The notes under the pieces were generated by a model. It had not been told where the DNA came from. It ran no database searches and saw only the letters and a program-made list of their open reading frames with translations. The translations under genes were made by a program, and so were the position numbers. From Escherichia coli O157:H7 (GTDB lineage: Bacteria; Pseudomonadota; Gammaproteobacteria; Enterobacterales; Enterobacteriaceae): 64,000 nucleotides of DNA. Shown one piece after another: positions 3,072 through 29,045 of the stretch. The DNA is taken from the NCBI RefSeq assembly GCF_013167455.1, contig NZ_CP038328.1; one strand, given 5' to 3'. The stretch's first letter is position 1, and each line of letters opens with the position of its first letter.

Positions 3072-3848
3072 TTATTCTTCAGTTTTTTCGCTTTCTGCTT
3101 CAGCGTCGTTTTCCTCTTCCCGATTTCGCCCTTTACCAACGTAAAAGCGTGAGAAGAAGACACCGATTTCAAACAGACAGTACATCGGGATCGCCAACAG
3201 CGTTTGCGAGAAGACATCCGGCGGCGTCAGCAACATCCCGACAACGAATGCACCAACCAGCACATACGGGCGTTTTTTGCGTAAGTCTTCTGGCGAGGTA
3301 ATCCCCATCCAGCACAGCAGCACAATTGCCACCGGCACTTCAAAGGAGACACCAAACGCCATAAACAGCGCCATAACGAAGCTTAAATAGCTGGCGATGT
3401 CGGTGGATACCTGCACCCCTTCCGGCGCGGTATTGGCAAGGAAGCCAAATGCCAGCGGAAAGACCACAAAGTAGGCGAACGCCATGCCGATATAAAATAG
3501 CAGAGAGCTGGAAACCAGCAGCGGCACCACCAGGCGACGTTCATGCTTATACAGCGCTGGGGCGATAAATGCCCACACCTGATAGAGAATCACCGGCGCT
3601 GACAGAATCAGCGACACCATAAAGGTCAGCTTGATCGGCGTAAAGAACGGCGAGGCCACGTCGGTGGCGATCATCGTTGAACCTTGCGGCAACTGCTTGA
3701 TCAATGGCGCGGATACCAGGTGATAGATGTCATTGGCGAAATAGACCAGACACAGGAATATCACGATCACCGCGATAATGCAGTTCAGCAGACGCTTACG
3801 CAGCTCAATCAGATGCGTGATAAGCGGTTGAGTATCTTCTACAGACAT
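3072..3848 (-). CDS. tatC: Twin-arginine translocase subunit TatC
   Basis: 258-aa polytopic membrane [23 protein letters not shown]...; tatABCD order. Confidence 0.95.
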
Positions 3849-3850
3849 GT

Positions 3851-4366
3851 TTACGGTTTATCACTCGACGAAGGGGAAGGTGCAGCGGTTTTCGGTTCAG
3901 CGTCCGCAGCAGGTTTTACCACCGGCTCTGGCGTGGTTTCTGGCTTCTGTTCCGGCGAACTGGCCTGCGTTTGTGCAGCGGCAGGCGTTACACCCTCATG
4001 CGCAGCTTCATTATCTTTCACCACCGGGTTATGGATGGTGTGCGCTTCATCGCTCGCCTTTTCAGGATCGTTTGCAACGTAGGAACGCTTCATCGACTCC
4101 GCGGCCTGGCGTAGTTCATCCATCGACGCTTTCAGTTCGGGCGTCAGGTTAGTGAGGCTCGCCTTTTCAACCTTTTTCAGACTGTCCTGAAACTCCTGGA
4201 GTTTTAACTCCTGGGTCAGTTCGTTCTGCACCGTTGTCGCCAGTGAACGCAACGCGCGAATCCAGCCCGCTACCGTTTTTACCGCCACAGGCAGTCGTTG
4301 CGGCCCCAGAACGACGAGGCCGATGATGAACACCAATAGCAGTTCGCTAAAACCGATATCAAACAC
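3851..4366 (-). CDS. tatB: Twin-arginine translocase subunit TatB
   Basis: 171-aa [29 protein letters not shown]... Confidence 0.95.
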
Positions 4367-4369
4367 GGA

Positions 4370-4639
4370 TTACACCTGCTCTTTATCGTGGCGCTTCGCG
4401 TCTTCTGTTTTAGCCTGTTCCTGATTCGTATCCGCCTGCTTATCGGCGATAGTTTTCGCAGTAAAATCAGCATCCTGACTGGTTTTATCCTGCTTTGGTT
4501 CATCATCGCTCATTGCTTTTTTAAAGCCTTTGATCGACGCACCAAGATCGGAACCGATGGAGCCGAGCTTTTTGGTGCCAAAAAGCAGTACAACGATGAC
4601 GGCAATAATCAATAACTGCCAAATACTGATACCACCCAT
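4370..4639 (-). CDS. tatA: Twin-arginine translocase subunit TatA
   Basis: ORF track gives 103 aa; the known TatA start [25 protein letters not shown] is the internal Met (89 aa), so the start is set at 4639. Confidence 0.9.
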
Positions 4640-4717
4640 ACATGTTCCTCTGTGGTAGATGATGATTAAACAAAGCCGCATTATACGTTACACGGCCCGC
4701 CTTGAGCGATGAAAAAA

Positions 4718-6960
<2,243 letters not shown>

Positions 6961-6973
6961 TTCCGGTCTCCTG

Positions 6974-7729
6974 TCAGAACTTATAACCACGATGCAGCGC
7001 CACAACCCCTGCCGTCAGATTGTAGTAGTCGACACTTTCGAATCCGGCATCCTGCATCATGGCTTTCAGGGTATCCTGATCGGGATGCATACGGATGGAT
7101 TCTGCCAGATAACGGTAGCTGTCGGCGTCGTTCGCGACCAGTGAGCCAATACGCGGCAGCACATGGAAGGAGTATGCATCATAGGCTTTGCTCAGCGGCT
7201 CGATAATTGGCTTCGAGAACTCAAGCACCAGCAGGCGGCCGCCGGGTTTCAGCACGCGATACATTGAACGCAGTGCTTTATCTTTGTCGGTGACGTTACG
7301 CAGACCAAACGAAATGGTGATGCAATCAAAGGTGTTATCCGGGAACGGCAGCGCCTCAGCGTTCGCCTGAACATACTCAACGTTGCCAATCACACCGATA
7401 TTACGCAGCTTCTCGCGGCCCATTTTGAGCATGGATTCATTGATATCAGCAAGGACCACTTTGCCAGTTTCTCCGACCAGGCGGGAGAATTTCGCTGTCA
7501 GGTCGCCGGTGCCACCAGCCAGATCCAGCACGGTCTGCCCACGGCGTACGCCGCTGCAATCAATCGTGAATCGCTTCCACAAACGATGAATACCAAATGA
7601 CATCAAATCATTCATGACATCGTATTTTGATGCCACGGAATGGAAAACGTGGGCGACCATATCCGCTTTTTGTTCCTTCGCGACGGTCTGAAAACCAAAG
7701 TGCGTCGTTTCTTGTGACTTATCCACCAT
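6974..7729 (-). CDS. ubiE: Ubiquinone/menaquinone C-methyltransferase UbiE
   Basis: 251-aa ORF with SAM-methyltransferase glycine-rich motif ([11 protein letters not shown]); recognised as UbiE. Confidence 0.95.
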
Positions 7730-7823
7730 CTCAATGCCTGCTCATCAAAAAATTGTTCCAGAAGTGTAACAGATTGGGCGTCGATGCCCTAGATTTCTAC
7801 CCGGCTTAACTACTCCCAATGGG

Positions 7824-9251
7824 CTAGCGCGACTGCTGATTATATTCATCATCGCGTTGATAAGCTTCATCATTCGGCTGCTCCGGAACCGACCGAAGTC
7901 GATACTCTTCATCCTGGCTCACCGCCTGTTCAGCCAAATCCGGATTAATCTCGCGTTTAATTTCTACTCCTAAACCGCGAAACGCTTCTGCCTGCGCCAG
8001 CACATTTCCGCGCCCTGAAGAGAGTTTTTTCATTGCCTGCCGATAGTTATCCTGCGCTTTGTCGAGACTTTGACCAATCGCGGACATGTCATCGATGAAC
8101 AAACGCATCTTGTCGTACAGCTTGCTGGCACGATCGGCGATTTGCTGGGCGTTGCGGCTTTGATGCTCATAACGCCACAGGTTGGCGATAGTGCGCAGCG
8201 CCACCAGCAGCGTAGTCGGGCTAACCAGCATGATATTGTTTTTCAACGCTTCGGTGATCAGCTCCGGCTGGCGGTCAAGCGCCAGTAAAAAAGCGGGTTC
8301 AACGGGAATAAACATCAGCACGTAATCCAGAGTTCGCAGCCCCGGCAGCTGTTGATAATCTTTGCGTCCCAGCAAACGGATATGGTTACGCACCGACGCG
8401 ATATGTTCCTGTAGCGCGCTTTCGCGGGTGTAGTCGTCTTCGGCGTTAAAATAGCGTTCATAGGCGACCAGCGTCATTTTGGCGTCGATCACCACATCTT
8501 TTCCCTGCGGCAGCCGCACGATGACATCCGGCTGCATCCGCGAGCGGGCGTCATTTTCGATGCTGACCTGGGTTTCATATTCATACCCTTCACGCAGACC
8601 GGAAGCCTCCAGCACCCGCGTCAATACTACCTCGCCCCAGTTGCCCTGGGTTTTATTGTCGCCTTTCAGCGCGCGCGTCAGGTTGATCGCTTCCTGGGCC
8701 ATTTGCGCGTTGAGTTGCTGGAGATTGCGAATTTCGTGGGTCAGGGTATGGCGTTCTTGTGCTTCTTTACCGAAGCTGTCCTGAACCTGACGGCGGAAAC
8801 CGTCCAGTTGTTCACGTAGCGGCGACAACAGGCTGTTCAGACTCTGACGGTTTTGCTCATCAACCCGGCGATTGCTGTGCTCAAAAATACGGTTGGCGAG
8901 GTTTTCAAACTGCTCACTGAGGCGCTGCTCGCTGTTAATCATCTGGCGAATTTTATCGTCAGCATGTTGCTGTGCGGCTTCCATCCGCGTGGTTACTTCA
9001 CGCAGATCGGCCTCCAGAGAGGTGTTAATACTTTGCAGGCTGCGCACTTCGTTATTGAGTAACTCGCACTCTGCACGCCAGTGCTCGCTTTGGGTAATTT
9101 GTTGTTTTACCGCGCTTAACTCCGCGACCATCTCTTCACGTTCAGCTAATTGCTCGGCTTTTTGCTGCGCATGTTGATAACTGGCAAACAGCCAGCCAAT
9201 TGCCACACCCACCAACGCAATAACTGCGTAAACCATGATTGAGAAATCCAC
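7824..9251 (-). CDS. rmuC: DNA recombination protein RmuC
   Basis: 475-aa ORF with N-terminal membrane anchor and long coiled-coil region; position between udp and ubiE. Confidence 0.9.
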   Translation of the reverse strand: MDFSIMVYAVIALVGVAIGWLFASYQHAQQKAEQLAEREEMVAELSAVKQQITQSEHWRAECELLNNEVRSLQSINTSLEADLREVTTRMEAAQQHADDKIRQMINSEQRLSEQFENLANRIFEHSNRRVDEQNRQSLNSLLSPLREQLDGFRRQVQDSFGKEAQERHTLTHEIRNLQQLNAQMAQEAINLTRALKGDNKTQGNWGEVVLTRVLEASGLREGYEYETQVSIENDARSRMQPDVIVRLPQGKDVVIDAKMTLVAYERYFNAEDDYTRESALQEHIASVRNHIRLLGRKDYQQLPGLRTLDYVLMFIPVEPAFLLALDRQPELITEALKNNIMLVSPTTLLVALRTIANLWRYEHQSRNAQQIADRASKLYDKMRLFIDDMSAIGQSLDKAQDNYRQAMKKLSSGRGNVLAQAEAFRGLGVEIKREINPDLAEQAVSQDEEYRLRSVPEQPNDEAYQRDDEYNQQSR

Positions 9252-21885: not shown

Positions 21886-22353
21886 ATGTCTGCCGTACTG
21901 ACCGCTGAACAAGCCCTGAAATTAGTGGGTGAGATGTTTGTTTATCACATGCCATTTAACCGCGCATTGGGGATGGAACTGGAGCGTTACGAAAAAGAGT
22001 TCGCACAGCTGGCCTTTAAAAATCAGCCAATGATGGTGGGCAACTGGGCGCAAAGCATTTTGCACGGCGGGGTCATTGCGTCGGCGCTGGATGTCGCCGC
22101 CGGTCTGGTGTGCGTAGGAAGTACCTTAACCCGCCACGAAACCATCAGTGAAGATGAACTACGCCAGCGGCTATCGCGGATGGGGACCATTGATCTTCGC
22201 GTCGATTATCTGCGCCCAGGCAGAGGCGAGCGTTTTACTGCTACCAGTAGCCTGTTGCGTGCAGGCAATAAAGTCGCCGTCGCCCGCGTTGAATTACACA
22301 ATGAAGAACAGCTTTATATTGCCAGTGCCACCGCCACCTATATGGTAGGTTGA
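21886..22353 (+). CDS. yigI: Hotdog-fold thioesterase YigI
   Basis: Start at internal Met [18 protein letters not shown] (155 aa); position between pldA and rarD. Confidence 0.8.
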
Positions 22354-22404
22354 AGACATAAAAGCAGGTAAACTGCTGTTACCAATTAAAAATGAGTATT
22401 CCCG

Positions 22405-23292
22405 ATGGATGCAAAACAAACGCGGCAGGGCGTATTACTCGCTCTTGCCGCTTATTTTATTTGGGGTATAGCCCCAGCGTACTTCAAGTTGATTTACTAC
22501 GTGCCCGCCGATGAGATCCTGACGCATCGCGTGATCTGGTCGTTTTTCTTTATGGTGGTGCTGATGAGCATTTGCCGCCAGTGGTCCTATTTAAAAACGC
22601 TGATTCAGACGCCACAGAAAATTTTTATGCTGGCAGTCTCTGCCGTGCTGATTGGTGGCAACTGGCTACTGTTTATCTGGGCGGTGAACAATCACCATAT
22701 GCTGGAAGCGAGCCTTGGTTACTTTATTAACCCGCTGGTGAACATTGTGCTGGGGATGATTTTCCTCGGCGAGCGATTCCGCCGGATGCAATGGCTGGCG
22801 GTGATTCTGGCGATATGTGGCGTGTTAGTCCAGCTGTGGACTTTTGGTTCGCTACCTATTATCGCGCTGGGGCTGGCATTTAGTTTTGCCTTCTACGGCC
22901 TGGTGCGCAAGAAGATTGCGGTAGAAGCACAAACCGGCATGTTAATTGAAACCATGTGGCTGCTGCCCGTGGCGGCGATTTACCTGTTTGCTATTGCCGA
23001 CAGCTCAACCAGCCATATGGGGCAAAACCCGATGTCGCTGAATTTACTGCTGATCGCCGCCGGTATTGTCACTACCGTACCGCTGTTGTGTTTTACCGCC
23101 GCTGCCACGCGCCTTCGTCTCTCAACGTTAGGCTTTTTCCAGTACATTGGCCCGACGCTGATGTTCCTGCTGGCTGTGACGTTTTATGGTGAAAAACCGG
23201 GTGCCGATAAGATGGTGACTTTCACCTTTATTTGGGTGGCGCTGGCAATTTTTGTGATGGATGCGATTTATACGCAGCGTAGAAAAAGTTAA
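22405..23292 (+). CDS. rarD: EamA/DMT-family transporter RarD
   Basis: 295-aa polytopic membrane ORF MDAKQTRQGVLLALAAYFIWGIAPAYFKL... recognised as RarD. Confidence 0.9.
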   Translation: MDAKQTRQGVLLALAAYFIWGIAPAYFKLIYYVPADEILTHRVIWSFFFMVVLMSICRQWSYLKTLIQTPQKIFMLAVSAVLIGGNWLLFIWAVNNHHMLEASLGYFINPLVNIVLGMIFLGERFRRMQWLAVILAICGVLVQLWTFGSLPIIALGLAFSFAFYGLVRKKIAVEAQTGMLIETMWLLPVAAIYLFAIADSSTSHMGQNPMSLNLLLIAAGIVTTVPLLCFTAAATRLRLSTLGFFQYIGPTLMFLLAVTFYGEKPGADKMVTFTFIWVALAIFVMDAIYTQRRKS

Positions 23293-23338
23293 GAATTAAC
23301 ATGGGTAGGCCGTTTAAAGAGCCTACCCACTGACTTAT

Positions 23339-23653
23339 TTATCTTTTTTTGAAAAAAATTAAGATAAGAAAAAGAACAATATTTGTTACAGGAAATCCCC
23401 CCAAAACTCCCCAGTACTTACTCCATCCTAGAGACATCGTATATCTACCAAGGATTTGACAAAACCCAAAACTTAACCCTATACCTATACTTCTTAAATT
23501 TAATGTCGTAGTCAGGCTTAAAATAAATAGAACAAGGATGGTAATAGCCCACCACAATAACCATGCCTTAACAAAATCAGATTTTTTGCTGTAAGGTTCT
23601 TTACCCAAGAACAACTGCCAAAAGTTACCATTTCCCATATAGAATCCATTCAC
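23339..23653 (-). CDS. Hypothetical small membrane protein (104 aa)
   Basis: ORF in AT-rich DNA with two clear hydrophobic segments (WLLWWAITILVLFILSL; FPVTNIVLFLILIFF); no family recognised; this is where E. coli K-12 has yigG, but I cannot confirm equivalence. Confidence 0.45.
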   Translation of the reverse strand: MNGFYMGNGNFWQLFLGKEPYSKKSDFVKAWLLWWAITILVLFILSLTTTLNLRSIGIGLSFGFCQILGRYTMSLGWSKYWGVLGGFPVTNIVLFLILIFFKKR

Positions 23654-23853
23654 CCAAGATATTGTTTATAGAATAAAAATACATTCCAATTATATTTAAT
23701 TAAAATATACCCCATCAATAAAAACTTACACACTCTAAATTACTACTGTATAGTTATCAATGCAAAGACTGCTATATTGCATATATATATGCAAACCACA
23801 TAATTCAGGTAATATATATTCAAAACAATTATATATATAAAACAATGTAAAAA

Positions 23854-24240
23854 ATGTTCAAATCATCCATCAGAAATATATTCTACCCATCCAAGCTTGA
23901 GCGTTTATCACGCTTTCAGTTCATAATCTATACATTAACATCATGGTCAATATTAATAACTTTGAATGATATCAACCTGGCTTTGAGTTTTATTCTGGTT
24001 ATTAATAATACCTATGTAAATATCAATATTGGAGCAAAAAGAATAAGAGATACTGGATGTAAGGCAATCTACTTTGTATTGATTTCATTGGGTTTGACAC
24101 TTTTTTCTATTATCTCTGCAGCAATTGAAGGGGTGAGATGTGAGTCATTAAGCGTCCAACTCAACGTGGCATGGATATTATTCACAACAATTATGTTATC
24201 TGCGATTCCCTCTGCTAAAATGTCGCTGTCAGCACACTAA
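23854..24240 (+). CDS. Small inner-membrane protein, DUF805-like (possible yigF/yigG equivalent)
   Basis: 128-aa ORF in AT-rich DNA; motifs LERLSRFQF and KRIRDTG...IYFVL resemble the N-terminal R-rich and RRLHDxxxSxWW signatures of DUF805 proteins as I remember them; tentative. Confidence 0.55.
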   Translation: MFKSSIRNIFYPSKLERLSRFQFIIYTLTSWSILITLNDINLALSFILVINNTYVNINIGAKRIRDTGCKAIYFVLISLGLTLFSIISAAIEGVRCESLSVQLNVAWILFTTIMLSAIPSAKMSLSAH

Positions 24241-24264
24241 CTTACTCACAGCGACATCGTATAG

Positions 24265-24408
24265 TTACAGCCAGTTCTTGCGCTTAAAGTACAGATACGG
24301 TGCCAGGCCCGCGAGGATCATAAAGATAATCGCGCCTGGGTAGCCGAAACTCCACTTCAGTTCTGGCATAAACTCAAAGTTCATGCCATAGCTGGAGGCA
24401 ATCGGCGT
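24265..24408 (-). pseudogene. Orphan duplicate of the corA 3' end (last ~44 codons, including stop)
   Basis: 24265-24384 is near-identical (about 2 mismatches in 120 bp) to 25976-26095, the 3' end of intact corA, and encodes [44 protein letters not shown]; similarity decays over the next ~25 bp. ORF track shows this as part of a 67-aa ORF 24265..24468. Confidence 0.85.
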
Positions 24409-24597
24409 AGGAAAAAGTTTCCTAATCGGTAAATTCAATATTTTGTTATTAACAATGAGCAAGACCAATCATTAACGACGTTCTCTTCAGAGATGTAATG
24501 AAAAAATGTGAAGTGTACTTCTTTTTTAAATATTTTTTTACCCTAGCATTTGTTCTCAAATTGATATTGAGCTTAAATATAACCAAGGAAAATGTAA

Positions 24598-25446
24598 ATG
24601 AATAACACATTACTTCCATCAATTAATATTCCCTGTACACTTTTCGAAACTATTAGTTTATTTGATAATTATTCTGCTGATGATATGCAATATGGTGATA
24701 TGGTAGAACAAGATTTTCTCTCACTCGGCCTAAGCGATATCTCAGCAAAAGTTGATCCTTACAGACTTATTAAATACCATTTCCCTGGCCCAGGTTCTAT
24801 TAATGTTGCTTTTAGTGCCTCAAGTTCCGGAACAAAAATATCACAACGTGAATGCACTGATATTTTATTTGCAGAAATGAAAGAACTAGCAAAAATGTTT
24901 TCCTTTTTTGGACAATATAAAACACTTATCGAAGATCTGATTGAACATTTTAGATATGGAAATGGCAGCAATTTTCATAGCCAACAATTAAATTTATCTT
25001 TTCATGAAAAAATAAATAAATATGGTTATAATAGTCCAATACGAATAATCAAAGAATGTATCGAAAATGGCATTAATTCAACTCCCTCGACAGGATACCA
25101 ACCTCTTATCCTGCAAAGCATTAAAACCAAATTACTTTCATCAAGACTAAATAAATTTAATGACTTCGAGGACAGTTTTAATGGCTTAGGAATCAGTGTT
25201 CATGATATTTCAGCTCAAAAAATATCTCTTTTAAGTTTTCAAAAATACGCTATAGGATGGAGTGCAACAATTCATTTTGTAGCACAGGACCACTTCGGTC
25301 TTGATGTAACTGATATCAAAAACAAGACTTACAGCAAATATAGATTTTTTCGCATATGGTTCTTTTTACAACGGCATAAAGACTTTGCTTTCAAACCTTT
25401 TTTCACCAATTTTAACACTATCGAAAGAATCGAAAATTATCTATGA
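24598..25446 (+). CDS. Hypothetical protein, 282 aa, no export signal, family not recognised (cassette gene A)
   Basis: Long ORF in strongly AT-rich DNA (by eye about 30-35% G+C; not computed), where chance long ORFs are unlikely; AAGGA Shine-Dalgarno about 8 nt upstream of the ATG; stop overlaps the start of the next ORF (ATGA at 25443-25446); no N-terminal hydrophobic segment. Confidence 0.75.
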   Translation: MNNTLLPSINIPCTLFETISLFDNYSADDMQYGDMVEQDFLSLGLSDISAKVDPYRLIKYHFPGPGSINVAFSASSSGTKISQRECTDILFAEMKELAKMFSFFGQYKTLIEDLIEHFRYGNGSNFHSQQLNLSFHEKINKYGYNSPIRIIKECIENGINSTPSTGYQPLILQSIKTKLLSSRLNKFNDFEDSFNGLGISVHDISAQKISLLSFQKYAIGWSATIHFVAQDHFGLDVTDIKNKTYSKYRFFRIWFFLQRHKDFAFKPFFTNFNTIERIENYL

Positions 25447-25934
25447 AAAGCAAACTCCAAAAAATTATATTATGTTTATTTCTTCTATGCTGCATCTATA
25501 ATTTATGGACATTGCGTCCTGTACAGATTTTGTATACATACTCTGATGCTGGCAATTCAGTCTTTCTGGTCGTTGATCATCTGCCATGGACTGACAGCGA
25601 TAAAATAAATTGGTATCTGAAGCATCAGAATGAAATTAAAAATCAACATCCCCTACCAGAAGGTAGTTGGCATACCTGGTATGTCATTGATATCGGTAAT
25701 GGCTTCACTGACTATAAAAAATATATCGAAGGGCCGTATGAAGATCTCTACTGTTTCCCGACAATTAAGAGCAATGATAATTGCATCACGAAAAATTACT
25801 TAATGGTTATTAATGAATACCCTTATCGTAACACTCATATTGGTATTAACGATTTTACTGAGTATCAATTAACACAAGAAAATAAAATAGAGCAAGTTTT
25901 CAATCCGCATAACTTTAAAAAAGACAATTTTTAG
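25443..25934 (+). CDS. Hypothetical exported or membrane-anchored protein, 163 aa (cassette gene B)
   Basis: ATG overlaps the stop of gene A (translational coupling); N-terminus MKSKLQKIILCLFLLCCIYNLW has a basic n-region and about 15-residue hydrophobic core (signal peptide or signal anchor); same low G+C as gene A; family not recognised. Confidence 0.7.
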   Translation: MKSKLQKIILCLFLLCCIYNLWTLRPVQILYTYSDAGNSVFLVVDHLPWTDSDKINWYLKHQNEIKNQHPLPEGSWHTWYVIDIGNGFTDYKKYIEGPYEDLYCFPTIKSNDNCITKNYLMVINEYPYRNTHIGINDFTEYQLTQENKIEQVFNPHNFKKDNF

Positions 25935-25940
25935 AAATAA

Positions 25941-25968
25941 GCCGGATAAAAAAATAGCTTTATCCGGC
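25941..25968 (-). terminator. Hairpin terminator immediately downstream of corA
   Basis: 10-bp inverted repeat gccggataaa / tttatccggc with 8-nt loop; on the minus strand it is followed by a T-rich tract, so it reads as the corA terminator; on the + strand it follows cassette gene B without a T-run. Confidence 0.6.
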
Positions 25969-25975
25969 ACTCATA

Positions 25976-26926
25976 TTACAACCAGTTCTTCCGCTTAAAG
26001 TACAGATACGGTGCCAGGCCCGCGAGGATCATAAAGATAATCGCGCCTGGGTAGCCGAAACTCCACTTCAGTTCTGGCATAAACTCAAAGTTCATCCCGT
26101 AGCTGGAAGCAACCAGCGTTGGCGGCAGGAACACGACGGATACCACCGAGAAAATTTTGATGATGCGGTTCTGCTCGATGTTGATAAAACCCATTGCCGC
26201 CTGCATCAGGAAGTTCACCTTCTGGAACAGGGATTCGTTATGCGGCAGCAGGGATTCGATATCTCGCAGGATTTCACGCGCCTGCTCCAGTTGCCCACCC
26301 GGTAAGCGTGCTTTACGTACCAGGAAGTTGAGCGCGCGCTGGGTATCCATCAGACACAGGCGCACTTTCCAGCCGATATCTTCCAGTTCCGCCAGAGTGG
26401 AGAGCGCCTCGTCGTACTCATCGCCCTGATGCCCTTCCATAATCACCCGGCTCAATTGCTCCAGGTCGCTATAGATATTTTCAATTTCATCTGCCAACTG
26501 TTCGATTTTGGTTTCGAACAGATCCAGCAGCAACTCGTAGGCGTTACCGTCTACCATCGACTGGCTACGGGCACGCATACGATACAGACGAAAAGCGGGC
26601 AGTTCACGCTCACGCAGAGTAAACAGACGACCATCACGGATGGTAAATGCCACAGTGGAGTTACCGGCGTGATCTTCCGCATCTTCAAAGAAGAAGAAGG
26701 AGTGAATATGCAGGCCGTCATCGTCTTCAAAGAAACGTGCCGATGCTTCGATGTCTTCCAGTTCCGGGCGGGTTGCCAGGCTCTGGCCAAGTTCAGATTG
26801 TACGCGCAGTCGCTCGTCGTCGTCCGGTTCGACAAGATCAATCCATACTGCATTTACAAGGGGTTGTGACTCTTCGACTTCCAGCCGGGTCAGTCGGTTA
26901 TTTTCCAGTTGAAATGCGCTCAGCAT
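25976..26926 (-). CDS. corA: Magnesium/cobalt transport protein CorA
   Basis: Recognised CorA sequence ([31 protein letters not shown]... [11 protein letters not shown] ...KRKNWL, 316 aa); start at internal Met of the 321-aa ORF. Confidence 0.95.
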
Positions 26927-27295
26927 GACCGGGACTCCCAATGCTTAAAATATCGGACAGTTCGGTGGGCACACAGAAACAAATTGGGTTTCAGACCATT
27001 AAACAGCCTGACTCAGCGCGACGGGAAAAATTGAGGTCGCTGACAACCGCTAAGGCTATCAGCAAAAAGGGATAGCCTTAGGAGTTGATCCTGGATGACA
27101 GGATAGTGAGCCAGTATCTACTGGGTGTGTCCAAGGCGAATGTCCTCTTAGAGTGATCGTGCGCGCATGTTACGCCAGCAAAATTTTGCCGTCAACACGC
27201 AACAGAACACCACAGAACAATAGTTGAACTTCGCGCTTTTTGGTACTCGTCAAGGTCGCTAACAGGATAAAAAAATCCCACATCCAGGACCTATA

Positions 27296-28060
27296 ATGGC
27301 GCATCGGCTACTCATTGGTAAAGGAATGATCACCTTGAATCTCAAACGGATTTTTCTCGCCCTCACCTTACTTCCCTTGTTTGCTGTTGCCGCTGATGAT
27401 TGCGCACTCTCAGATCCAACGCTGACCGTACAGGCGTATACCGTTAATCCTCAAACAGAGCGGGTGAAAATGTACTGGCAAAAAGCCAATGGCGAAGCGT
27501 GGGGAACTTTACATGCTCTGCTGGCGGATATGAATAGTCAGGGTCAGGTGCAGATGGCGATGAACGGCGGCATCTATGATGAAAGCTATGCGCCGCTCGG
27601 TTTGTACATCGAAAACGGTCAGCAGAAGGTGGCGTTAAATCTCGCTTCAGGTGAAGGGAATTTCTTTATCCGTCCTGGCGGCGTGTTTTATGTCGCGGGA
27701 GATAAAGTCGGCATCGTTCGTCTGGATGCCTTCAAAACCAGTAAAGAGATTCAGTTTGCGGTGCAGTCAGGGCCAATGTTGATGGAAAACAGTGTAATTA
27801 ATCCGCGTATTCATCCCAACGTCGCCTCACGTAAAATTCGTAACGGTGTTGGAATTAATAAACATGGGAATGCCGTGTTTTTGTTGAGCCAGCAGGCGAC
27901 AAATTTTTATGATTTTGCCTGTTATGCCAAAGCGAAACTGAACGTTGAGCAGCTGCTTTATCTTGATGGCACGATTTCACATATGTATATGAAAGGCGGG
28001 GCAATCCCGTGGCAACGCTATCCTTTTGTCACCATGATTTCCGTCGAGCGGAAAGGTTAA
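27296..28060 (+). CDS. yigE: Uncharacterised exported protein YigE
   Basis: 254-aa ORF with N-terminal signal-like segment (LKRIFLALTLLPLFAVAADD); matches E. coli YigE as I remember it; divergent from corA. Confidence 0.85.
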   Translation: MAHRLLIGKGMITLNLKRIFLALTLLPLFAVAADDCALSDPTLTVQAYTVNPQTERVKMYWQKANGEAWGTLHALLADMNSQGQVQMAMNGGIYDESYAPLGLYIENGQQKVALNLASGEGNFFIRPGGVFYVAGDKVGIVRLDAFKTSKEIQFAVQSGPMLMENSVINPRIHPNVASRKIRNGVGINKHGNAVFLLSQQATNFYDFACYAKAKLNVEQLLYLDGTISHMYMKGGAIPWQRYPFVTMISVERKG

Positions 28061-28142: not shown

Positions 28143-29045
28143 ATGAAAAAAACGCTCGCAACGTTATTTTTATTAACGTGTCTGGGATCATCATCCGCTT
28201 ATGCGGATAACGCTTTGATTTTACAAACTGATTTTAGCCTGAAAGATGGTGCCGTCTCGGCGATGAAAGGGGTCGCATTCGGTGTTGACCATAATCTTAA
28301 AATATTTGATTTAACACACGAAATTCCACCGTATAACATCTGGGAAGGCGCTTACCGCCTGTATCAGACCGCCAGTTACTGGCCGCAAGGTTCGGTATTT
28401 GTCAGTGTGGTCGATCCGGGCGTAGGCACTGACCGTAAATCGATAGTGCTGAAAACCAAAAACGGTCAATACTTCGTTTCACCGGATAACGGTACGCTCA
28501 CTTTGGTGGCGGAATCGCTGGGTATTGAGAGCGTCCGGGAAATCGACGAAAAAGCTAACCGCCTGAAAGGTTCTGAAAAGTCATATACCTTCCACGGTCG
28601 TGACGTGTATGCCTACACCGGTGCACGTCTGGCTTCCGGGGCGATCACGTTCGAGCAGGTGGGGCCTGAGCTTCCTGCAAAGGTTGTCGAACTTTCTTAT
28701 CAGAAAGCAAAAGCAACAAAAGGTGAAGTGAAGGGCAATATCCCGATTCTCGATATTCAGTACGGCAACGTCTGGAGCAATATCAGCGACGAGTTGCTGA
28801 ATCAGGCGGGGATCAAACTCAACGACACGTTGTGTGTGACCATTTCCGAAGGTTCCCGGCAAAAATACGCAGGGAAAATGCCGTATGTCGCAAGCTTCGG
28901 CGATGTGCCGGAAGGACAGCCGATGGTGTATCTGAACAGCTTATTGAATGTTTCCGTGGCGCTGAATATGGATAATTTCGCGCAGAAACATCAGGTTGCG
29001 TCTGGTGCTGACTGGAATATTGATGTGAAGAAATGTGATAAGTAA
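28143..29045 (+). CDS. Exported SalL/DUF62-family protein (SAM-dependent halogenase / SAM hydroxide adenosyltransferase-like)
   Basis: 300-aa ORF with Sec-type signal peptide MKKTLATLFLLTCLGSSSAYA; mature region aligns by eye with the chlorinase SalL: LILQTDFS~IAFLSDVG, MKGVAFGV~CKGVMYGV, IFDLTHEI~IVDITHDV, YGNVWSNI~FGNVWTNI, SFGDVPEGQPMVYLNS~TFGEVDEGQPLLYLNS; GAAGGGA ribosome-binding site upstream. Confidence 0.8.
   Translation: MKKTLATLFLLTCLGSSSAYADNALILQTDFSLKDGAVSAMKGVAFGVDHNLKIFDLTHEIPPYNIWEGAYRLYQTASYWPQGSVFVSVVDPGVGTDRKSIVLKTKNGQYFVSPDNGTLTLVAESLGIESVREIDEKANRLKGSEKSYTFHGRDVYAYTGARLASGAITFEQVGPELPAKVVELSYQKAKATKGEVKGNIPILDIQYGNVWSNISDELLNQAGIKLNDTLCVTISEGSRQKYAGKMPYVASFGDVPEGQPMVYLNSLLNVSVALNMDNFAQKHQVASGADWNIDVKKCDK

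Follow-up and report, generated by a model that had tools for sequence, protein, structure and literature searches.

Prophage e14 and phage 21 reportedly integrate into the 3' end of the icd gene and bring a replacement for that end with them, as Hill et al. (1989) and Campbell et al. (1992) are said to have described. We observed a comparable footprint at corA in a stretch of 64,000 nucleotides (nt) from Escherichia coli O157:H7 (NCBI RefSeq assembly GCF_013167455.1, contig NZ_CP038328.1), which we call the window. Here, a 1.56-kb cassette of two genes, one for a DUF3289 and one for a DUF943 protein, lies between intact corA and a second, stranded copy of the corA 3' end. One ancestral recombination event, anchored in corA homology, probably installed it there. 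As at icd, a housekeeping gene has its 3' end in two copies and is kept intact by DNA from the side of the element, the displaced copy lies on the far side, and the duplicated length is similar (~165 nt at icd). However, e14 encodes an integrase and excises site-specifically, whereas the 1.56-kb insert at corA has no integrase and occurs elsewhere without a duplication.

In an E. coli conjugation assay designed for homology-facilitated illegitimate recombination (HFIR), 56 of 60 integrants carried duplications of 109-950 bp of the homologous locus, which arose when a circular molecule with a truncated segment of homology integrated by one crossover (PMC3240628). Such Campbell-type integration resembles the corA locus in that a direct duplication of part of the homologous gene flanks the insert (147 nt at corA), one arm ends at a non-homologous joint, no dedicated recombinase is required and a crossover between the arms reverses the event. 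It differs in that the assay used a laboratory plasmid construct, while the corA insert is a natural chromosomal cassette in about one third of the finished E. coli genomes, for which we infer a circular intermediate rather than observe it. HFIR itself (de Vries & Wackernagel 2002; Prudhomme et al. 2002; Meier & Wackernagel 2003) has been proposed for the turnover of type VI secretion system (T6SS) effector-immunity pairs in Vibrio cholerae and for the displacement of Rhs C-termini (PMC5361080). There too, a conserved gene beside a toxin-immunity module acts as a one-sided anchor, the other end is joined illegitimately, and the displaced resident sequence persists as an orphan fragment. In those cases the toxin or T6SS locus itself supplies the anchor, and what is orphaned is an immunity gene or a toxin tip. 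At corA, an unrelated gene, that of a housekeeping transporter, serves as the anchor, and 147 nt of it are orphaned.

A preliminary description of the window had reported the corA 3' end twice around the cassette, with about 2 mismatches in 120 bp and a further ~25 bp of decaying similarity. A repeat search of the window agreed closely: positions 24265-24411 repeat the last 147 nt of corA (25976-26122) in direct orientation, at 95% identity and with a period of 1,711 nt. Compared position by position, the arms differ at nt 6, 16, 121, 124, 133, 138, 140 and 145, that is, twice in nt 1-120 and six times in the final 27 nt. The mismatches are confined to both edges of the repeat and leave an identical core of 104 nt; past nt 147 the identity is at chance level (4/17). 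The 1,564 nt between the arms (24412-25975) comprise a linker, a leader, the two overlapping genes and one hairpin (25941-25968), which is the sole terminator-like site within 24200-26100 and had already been read as the corA terminator. The insert has a GC content of 29-36%, against ~50% in the flanks. The CorA protein of the window is identical to that of K-12, and RefSeq labels the left arm, subsequently referred to as the remnant, 'CorA family divalent cation transporter, incomplete'. Insertion of a transposon or insertion sequence (IS) was rejected as an explanation: there is no transposase open reading frame (ORF), and a duplication of 147 nt, compared with target duplications of 2-14 bp, is far too long for a target-site duplication made by transposition. 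No terminal inverted repeats bounding the insert were present among the 15 pairs found.

Queries specific for the junctions, run against 5,426 complete E. coli genomes, distinguished five states of the locus. State A (rarD-yigG-yigF-corA) has no cassette and was seen in K-12 and in five other cassette-free genomes sampled; a chimeric query of yigF flank and corA found it in at least 2,156 genomes (coverage >=80%), and subtracting the other states leaves ~2,760 genomes, the sampled ones being K-12-like. State B is that of the window, which is identical to O157-type genomes such as 2017C-4109: between rarD and the remnant lie genes for a 99-aa hypothetical protein and a YigG-like ORF, followed by cassette and corA. 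Its left segment occurs in 1,430 genomes, in 24 of which it is joined to a single intact corA without the cassette (state E). In state C (931 genomes, e.g. ST2747 and PBP8) the cassette stands in place of yigG-yigF, next to a 5' stub of yigG, and there is no remnant. State D (rarD-yigG-yigF-remnant-cassette-corA) includes BL21 derivatives, 2014C-3075 and F11 and amounts to 300 genomes by direct count.

The remnant-cassette junction occurs once each in 1,709 of the genomes; none of the 5,426 has two copies, and no tandem amplification was seen. The census closes well, with 1,709 + 931 = 2,640 against 2,636 cassette carriers, and with 1,709 - (1,430 - 24) = 303 predicted against 300 counted genomes in state D. 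The footprint of insertion or recombination proposed before at the corA 3' end is thus a presence/absence polymorphism, and the two copies are not common to all lineages, states A, C and E being without the remnant. It is extremely improbable that the second corA end is an artefact of assembly or sequencing or a chance similarity. The general caution that repeats can be mis-assembled applies here as elsewhere, but 147 nt at 95% identity are far beyond chance, the junction recurs in finished genomes from many laboratories and platforms, and the Prokaryotic Genome Annotation Pipeline (PGAP) annotates the remnant as a partial coding sequence (CDS).

Comparison with cassette-free genomes, which the preliminary description had recommended, defined the junction at corA nt 147 plus the linker and showed which copy is the resident one. 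In state D (BL21 lineage, 2014C-3075), the stop of the remnant abuts the sequence found downstream of corA in K-12, with the yigF-terminator hairpin (...GGCTTAGCC..CTAAGCCACCGC..TTTTT-TTA), and the stop of intact corA abuts the cassette's own GCCGGATAA...TTATCCGGC hairpin. Because the state D remnant keeps the corA-downstream flank of K-12, it is the displaced 3' end of the resident corA, as had been supposed for the stranded copy, and the functional corA ends in cassette-side DNA. The hairpin, the predicted terminator of intact corA, would then have arrived with the cassette. State C E. coli and Salmonella arizonae have a similar hairpin, with the GCCGGATAA arm in common, next to the stop of corA, and K-12 has a different hairpin at this place.

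All 9 remnants examined, from both left-hand contexts, share the joint GCAATC(C/G)GCGTAGG-AAAAAGTTTCCTAATCG-GTAAATTCA. Since they have this one inner joint in common and 1,709 genomes match across it, the data indicate a single founding event and subsequent spread among lineages. The same joint and linker occur in both left-hand contexts; therefore, the left-hand module was exchanged after the founding event, for which homologous recombination that crossed over within rarD and the remnant would be the simplest means. Substitutions specific to remnants are concentrated in the final 15 nt. Some remnants carry nonsynonymous changes in the region of the GMN motif (Tyr-to-Ser in FDAARGOS_944 and Tyr-to-Asp in 2014C-3075), and the remnant is thus a pseudogene that is not under selection as a protein.

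We could also identify products of crossing-over between the two arms. The O157-like strain 7784 lacks the cassette and has a single corA with the flank of the remnant and the remnant bases G6 and G16, followed by the bases of the intact copy from nt 121 on, which places the crossover within nt 17-120. Six further genomes gave the same 99.4% match to a designed chimera as strain 7784. A single corA is also found in AS19-RrmA-, next to BL21's exact remnant-side flank and the same internal stop in yigG; its corA has the BL21 intact-type bases at nt 76, 85 and 87, so that the crossover falls within nt 1-75. We take AS19 to be a derivative of E. coli B, which fits the markers it has in common with BL21, and it represents a second loop-out in a lineage separate from that of 7784. 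The recombinants of 7784 and AS19 encode wild-type CorA (same protein accession), since over its first 44 codons the remnant specifies an amino acid sequence no different from that of the gene. The arms thus still recombine: crossing-over between them deletes the cassette precisely, leaving a single chimeric corA that codes for the wild-type protein. An internal yigG stop is present in a BL21 derivative, in AS19 and in F11.

The distribution of silent variants points to a further kind of exchange. G16 was absent from the corA genes sampled in state A (0/6) and state C (0/2), and it was found in remnants as well as in the intact corA of BL21 and FDAARGOS_944. Conversely, the remnant of 2014C-3075 carries the intact-type bases A6 and C16. 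Gene conversion thus probably moves silent variants between pseudogene and gene in both directions, and the arms would evolve in concert. The clustering of the differences at the edges is as expected, because conversion would homogenise the centre of the repeat. The earlier suggestion that the mismatches reflect different histories of the two copies is therefore right for nt 121 and 124, where the remnant matches the K-12-type corA allele, and does not apply to nt 6 and 16, which are exchanged by conversion.

What could be read from the genomes is how the locus is built, that it has a single junction, which end was displaced, that the locus is polymorphic, that loop-out products exist and that the copies share single-nucleotide polymorphisms (SNPs); the route by circle or linear DNA, the donor and the order of the states are reconstructed from them as follows. 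The donor chromosome would have had the cassette immediately downstream of corA, an order found in state C E. coli and S. arizonae, and the DNA from it would have comprised the cassette with its hairpin and no less than the final ~147 nt of corA. This DNA could have closed into a circle of ~1.71 kb by joining corA nt ~147 to a position ~190 nt upstream of the DUF3289 gene, and this 1,711-bp circle would have entered the resident corA by a single Campbell-type homologous crossover. Alternatively, a linear molecule could have recombined homologously inside corA and have been joined illegitimately at nt 147 of the resident gene, i.e. by HFIR. By either route, the functional corA would end in cassette-side DNA and use the cassette hairpin as its terminator, and the resident 147-nt end would be stranded as a pseudogene beside the old downstream sequence. 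The composite would then have spread among lineages by ordinary homologous recombination, and its left module would have been swapped, being yigG-yigF in state D and the YigG-like allele in the window.

Several observations are in line with such a homology-anchored insertion. Arms of 147 nt flank the insert, and at corA nt 147 the left one gives way to a linker unrelated to corA. A donor-type arrangement of cassette, hairpin and corA exists in state C E. coli and in Salmonella enterica subsp. arizonae and diarizonae, and products of reversal are seen in the chimeric single corA of 7784 and AS19 and in 24 genomes with the left flank of the window. The two Salmonella subspecies have the order recQ-pldA-yigI-rarD-DUF3289-DUF943-corA-uvrD with a single corA end, so that cassette, hairpin and corA are found together without a duplication in another genus.

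These observations also bear on the possibility that the insert is a site-specific integrative element, like e14 in icd, whose attachment site imitated the corA 3' end and which has since been stripped of its integrase and most of its genes. The preliminary description had offered this reading beside placement by homologous recombination, and we consider it very unlikely. The topology is the one that such elements leave: DNA of the element completes the gene, the end it displaced lies beyond the insert, and precise empty sites exist; the cassette looks foreign by its GC content, and in other genera it occupies other loci. The duplicated end, the completion of the gene and the empty sites are common to the recombination models, however, and do not discriminate. 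Only the DUF3289 and DUF943 genes lie between the arms, as had been noted before, with no integrase or transposase, and the neighbours are the core genes pldA-yigI-rarD and corA-yigE-uvrD. No integrase or recombinase was present in or beside the insert in any state examined, and the 1.56 kb are fully explained by two genes, a leader and a hairpin. Moreover, 931 E. coli genomes and two Salmonella subspecies have the cassette next to corA and no duplication, and the exchange of SNPs between the arms extends along the repeat, as general recombination would predict. Because there is no integrase and the cassette adjoins corA without a duplication in S. arizonae and diarizonae, recombination is the better of the two options.

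A search for the cassette at other places had been suggested as a means of finding it attached to a corA end or to an integrase. The former was found in S. arizonae and diarizonae; no E. coli state examined had an integrase beside the insert. In Enterobacter asburiae and Trabulsiella guamensis the cassette adjoins a gene read from its translation as fadH (2,4-dienoyl-CoA reductase), and a check of these copies for duplicated gene ends found none, which again speaks against site-specific integration. The E. asburiae cassette is flanked by direct repeats of 143 nt with 94% identity (4556-4698 and 6586-6728 of the locus extract). These consist of GC-rich units with a period of 68 nt that recur nearby, and they look like an extragenic repeat family and not like gene ends; they could also promote loop-out. 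T. guamensis has an array (4989-9080 of the locus extract) of a truncated DUF3289 gene (225 vs ~282 aa), three tandem DUF943 genes (159, 158 and 179 aa) and a full DUF3289 gene (290 aa), an orphan-immunity pattern as is typical for loci of polymorphic toxins. When PLSDB was searched by tblastn, the E. coli-type cassette was not found on genuine plasmids, which likewise gives no support to an integrative element, and a phage collection was not searched. Carriage by plasmids was rejected, the E. coli-type protein being present only in two mislabelled, chromosome-sized PLSDB records; the other matches were homologues of 24-38% identity from other genera.

An alignment of seven cassette sequences showed a mosaic. 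The left ~900 nt exist as two haplotypes, 83-86% identical, each tied to one junction type (83-85% for the leader segment), the central ~450 nt are 97-99.6% identical in all seven sequences, and at the right end there are two alleles, ~83% identical, whose distribution is independent of the junction type: 2014C-3075 (state D) equals PBP8 (state C) in this part, and ST2747 (state C) matches the window. The near-invariant columns 905-1350 correspond to the C-terminal third of the DUF3289 protein, with an invariant AQDHFGLD...FFRIW..LQR motif, and the N-terminal two-thirds of the DUF943 protein. Columns 187-905 and 1350-1567, i.e. the N-terminal two-thirds of the former and the C-terminal third of the latter, have two alleles each, differing by 14-17%. 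This pattern may reflect specificity in delivery or immunity.

The deep divergence of the left haplotypes is relevant to the order of the states. It is conceivable, if unlikely, that the cassette first entered an E. coli with yigG-yigF, giving state D, and that state C, instead of being the source, is a later product of a deletion that started inside yigG and stopped 17 nt beyond the remnant. This reversed order differs from the explanation given above in history only, not in the nature of the footprint. State C does keep the 5' stub of yigG and hence descends from a yigG-bearing chromosome. On the other hand, the left ~900 nt of the C and D cassettes differ far more than those of D and B, so that such a deletion would have to be ancient, and the Salmonella subspecies carry the arrangement without remnant. 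The 17-nt linker, identical in all 5 remnant-bearing genomes aligned, looks like a non-homologous (illegitimate) joint and may be a relic of the yigG stub. It matches the yigG segment at the equivalent position of state C in 11 of 17 nt (p about 0.002 by shuffles to 0.008 against the local AT-rich background), as expected if state D derived from a C-like molecule.

Some points weigh against the homology-anchored entry of a C-like donor as we have drawn it. The homology of the cassettes has the same left limit (GTAAATTCA) in states C and D; a deletion from D to C accounts for this without any coincidence, and the likeness of linker and yigG favours a C-like ancestor at suggestive strength only. 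No donor without remnant was found for the remnant-linked haplotype, and no donor tract is traceable inside corA. Such a tract was sought from SNP linkage, which failed, as corA alleles follow the strain background and not the state of the cassette; the corA genes of PBP8 (state C) and JJ2434 (state A), for example, are identical at the variable sites of the first 200 nt except for nt 6. The crossover intervals of the two loop-outs, nt 17-120 and nt 1-75, overlap and would be compatible with a fixed crossover point. Finally, the circular and the linear route look alike in sequence alone.

A bolder extension of the circular route would make the cassette an integrase-free mobile module driven by RecA, whose 1,711-bp circle re-enters any corA by a single crossover. 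We regard this as rather doubtful. It adds that the circle, or DNA released from it, carries a piece of a universally conserved core gene. If true, it would explain the spread over two left-hand contexts and several E. coli lineages, and the feeding of silent variants from the stranded pseudogene into functional corA would be a side effect.

Using the translated cassette genes, we examined their possible function. The DUF3289 protein matches TIGR03034 with 439 bits, above the cutoff of that family, and Pfam PF11692 (E 2e-84) over residues 10-278 of 282; the DUF943 protein matches PF06092 (E 2e-26) over residues 2-151 of 163 and has a hydrophobic N-terminus, consistent with a putative membrane anchor. 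The genes are adjacent and co-oriented, overlap by 4 nt and both have near-full-length family matches. An AlphaFold2 model of the DUF3289 protein, built from 9 sequences and of moderate confidence (predicted local distance difference test 74.5, predicted template modelling score 0.73), had as its best match in the Protein Data Bank 9jdi_A (E 9e-11), the C-terminal toxin domain of BtpeA, a Bacteroides fragilis T6SS effector, crystallised together with its immunity protein. Matches to colicin M and PaeM were weak (E 0.18-0.24, TM up to 0.24).

The DUF3289 protein T6EC1 is toxic in the periplasm of E. coli, where it rounds the cells, and its DUF943 partner T6IC1 rescues them; a colicin M-like activity was proposed for T6EC1, and according to the authors T6SS-dependent secretion has not yet been shown (PMC11148199). 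The presumed relationship of DUF3289 to colicin M rests on that study, and our fold search did not reproduce it. A Klebsiella study independently ties DUF3289 and DUF943 to a T6SS locus (PMC12469244). The E. coli pair resembles these pairs in having the same two Pfam families in the same order in overlapping genes, and, as to T6EC1/T6IC1, in that its DUF3289 model matches the solved toxin domain of a T6SS effector. It differs from them in being a free-standing 'orphan' that is not fused to a PAAR-type carrier domain, and no T6SS gene is found among the annotated neighbours from pldA to uvrD. In PLSDB, two distant DUF3289 homologues lie under genes annotated as PAAR domain-containing. The PADLOC models of defence systems matched neither cassette protein nor the two left-flank ORFs. 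By analogy, the DUF3289 gene is a candidate T6SS toxin and the DUF943 gene a candidate for the cognate immunity protein.

T7Express, a BL21 derivative (3501-5166 of its locus extract), and Nico21(DE3) natively carry the cassette and the corA remnant. BL21 was the host of the published toxicity and rescue assay for the DUF3289 family (PMC11148199), and its chromosomal immunity gene is evidently unprotective against the assayed toxin variant or unexpressed.

The features of the locus are compiled in Table 1. The rarD-corA spacer of the window is a third allele of this region, replacing yigG-yigF, with a GC content of 26-35%. In a pairwise comparison, its 128-aa ORF was 29% identical to K-12 YigG over the full length (E 3e-5), and it has a sub-threshold match to NCBIfam NF008474 and a non-significant one to Pfam DUF805 (E 0.32); it is a distant homologue of YigG. 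Pfam scans gave no significant family for either ORF of the left spacer, and Rfam at gathering thresholds no match over 22300-27400.

Table 1. Features of the corA locus in the window
Feature	Position	Strand	Description
Left-hand spacer allele	23293..24264	.	lineage-specific, in place of K-12 yigG-yigF; context, outside the inserted cassette
Hypothetical gene	23339-23638	-	99 aa, in left spacer
YigG-like ORF	23854-24240	+	128 aa, unannotated in RefSeq, in left spacer
corA remnant (corA')	24265..24411	-	last 48 codons and stop of corA, no 5' part; left repeat arm
Linker	24412..24428	.	17 nt, between end of corA homology and start of sequence common with remnant-less cassettes
Non-coding cassette leader	24429..24597	+	169 nt; homology with state C cassettes starts here (GTAAATTCA...)
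DUF3289 / YPO3983-family gene	24598..25446	+	282 aa
DUF943 gene	25443..25934	+	163 aa; start overlaps DUF3289 stop by 4 nt
Terminator-like hairpin	25941..25968	-	GCCGGATAA...TTATCCGGC stem, then T-run on corA strand
Intact corA	25976..26926	-	WP_000947159.1; last 147 nt (25976-26122) form right repeat arm

Other variation was observed at or near the locus. A gene of the S-adenosylmethionine (SAM) hydrolase / SAM-dependent halogenase family at 28143-29045 (+), between yigE and uvrD, is missing from K-12 and SMN152SH1 and constitutes a second presence/absence polymorphism ~2 kb from corA. FDAARGOS_944 has an IS4 inserted in yigE (6067-7901 of its locus extract). Z1323CEC0015 (NZ_CP148423.1 4264522-4264574) matches the cassette-side half only of the junction query and does not belong to state C; the locus may be rearranged there in yet another way. 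In NCTC9104 (NZ_LR134152.1 2957177-2964326), two IS1 copies enclose a complete corA together with ysgD, amid genes of a P2-like prophage (replication endonuclease, tail proteins, recombinase). This corA has a different protein accession and ~93% nucleotide identity at the 3' end, and the segment may have been captured or rearranged by IS1.

A literature search covering corA, yigF and rarD together found no paper describing this locus, while the kind of event and the cassette family are both already known. The locus provides a natural case of the way a toxin-immunity cassette can enter and leave a core-genome site by the homology of a neighbouring gene, with no mobile-element machinery, and all intermediates survive in sequenced genomes: the empty site, the cassette without scar, the cassette with scar and the re-emptied chimeric site. 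The repeat arms are a built-in route for clean loss of the cassette, seen in O157-like strains and AS19, and a pseudogene fragment can donate variants to an important transporter gene. In practical terms, the remnant gives rise to a partial-CDS annotation in ~1,700 finished genomes, and BL21-derived strains, which are common hosts for toxicity assays, natively carry this candidate toxin-immunity pair. Current concepts remain unchanged by these findings, which offer a concrete locus for measuring the homology-anchored gain and loss of competition genes.

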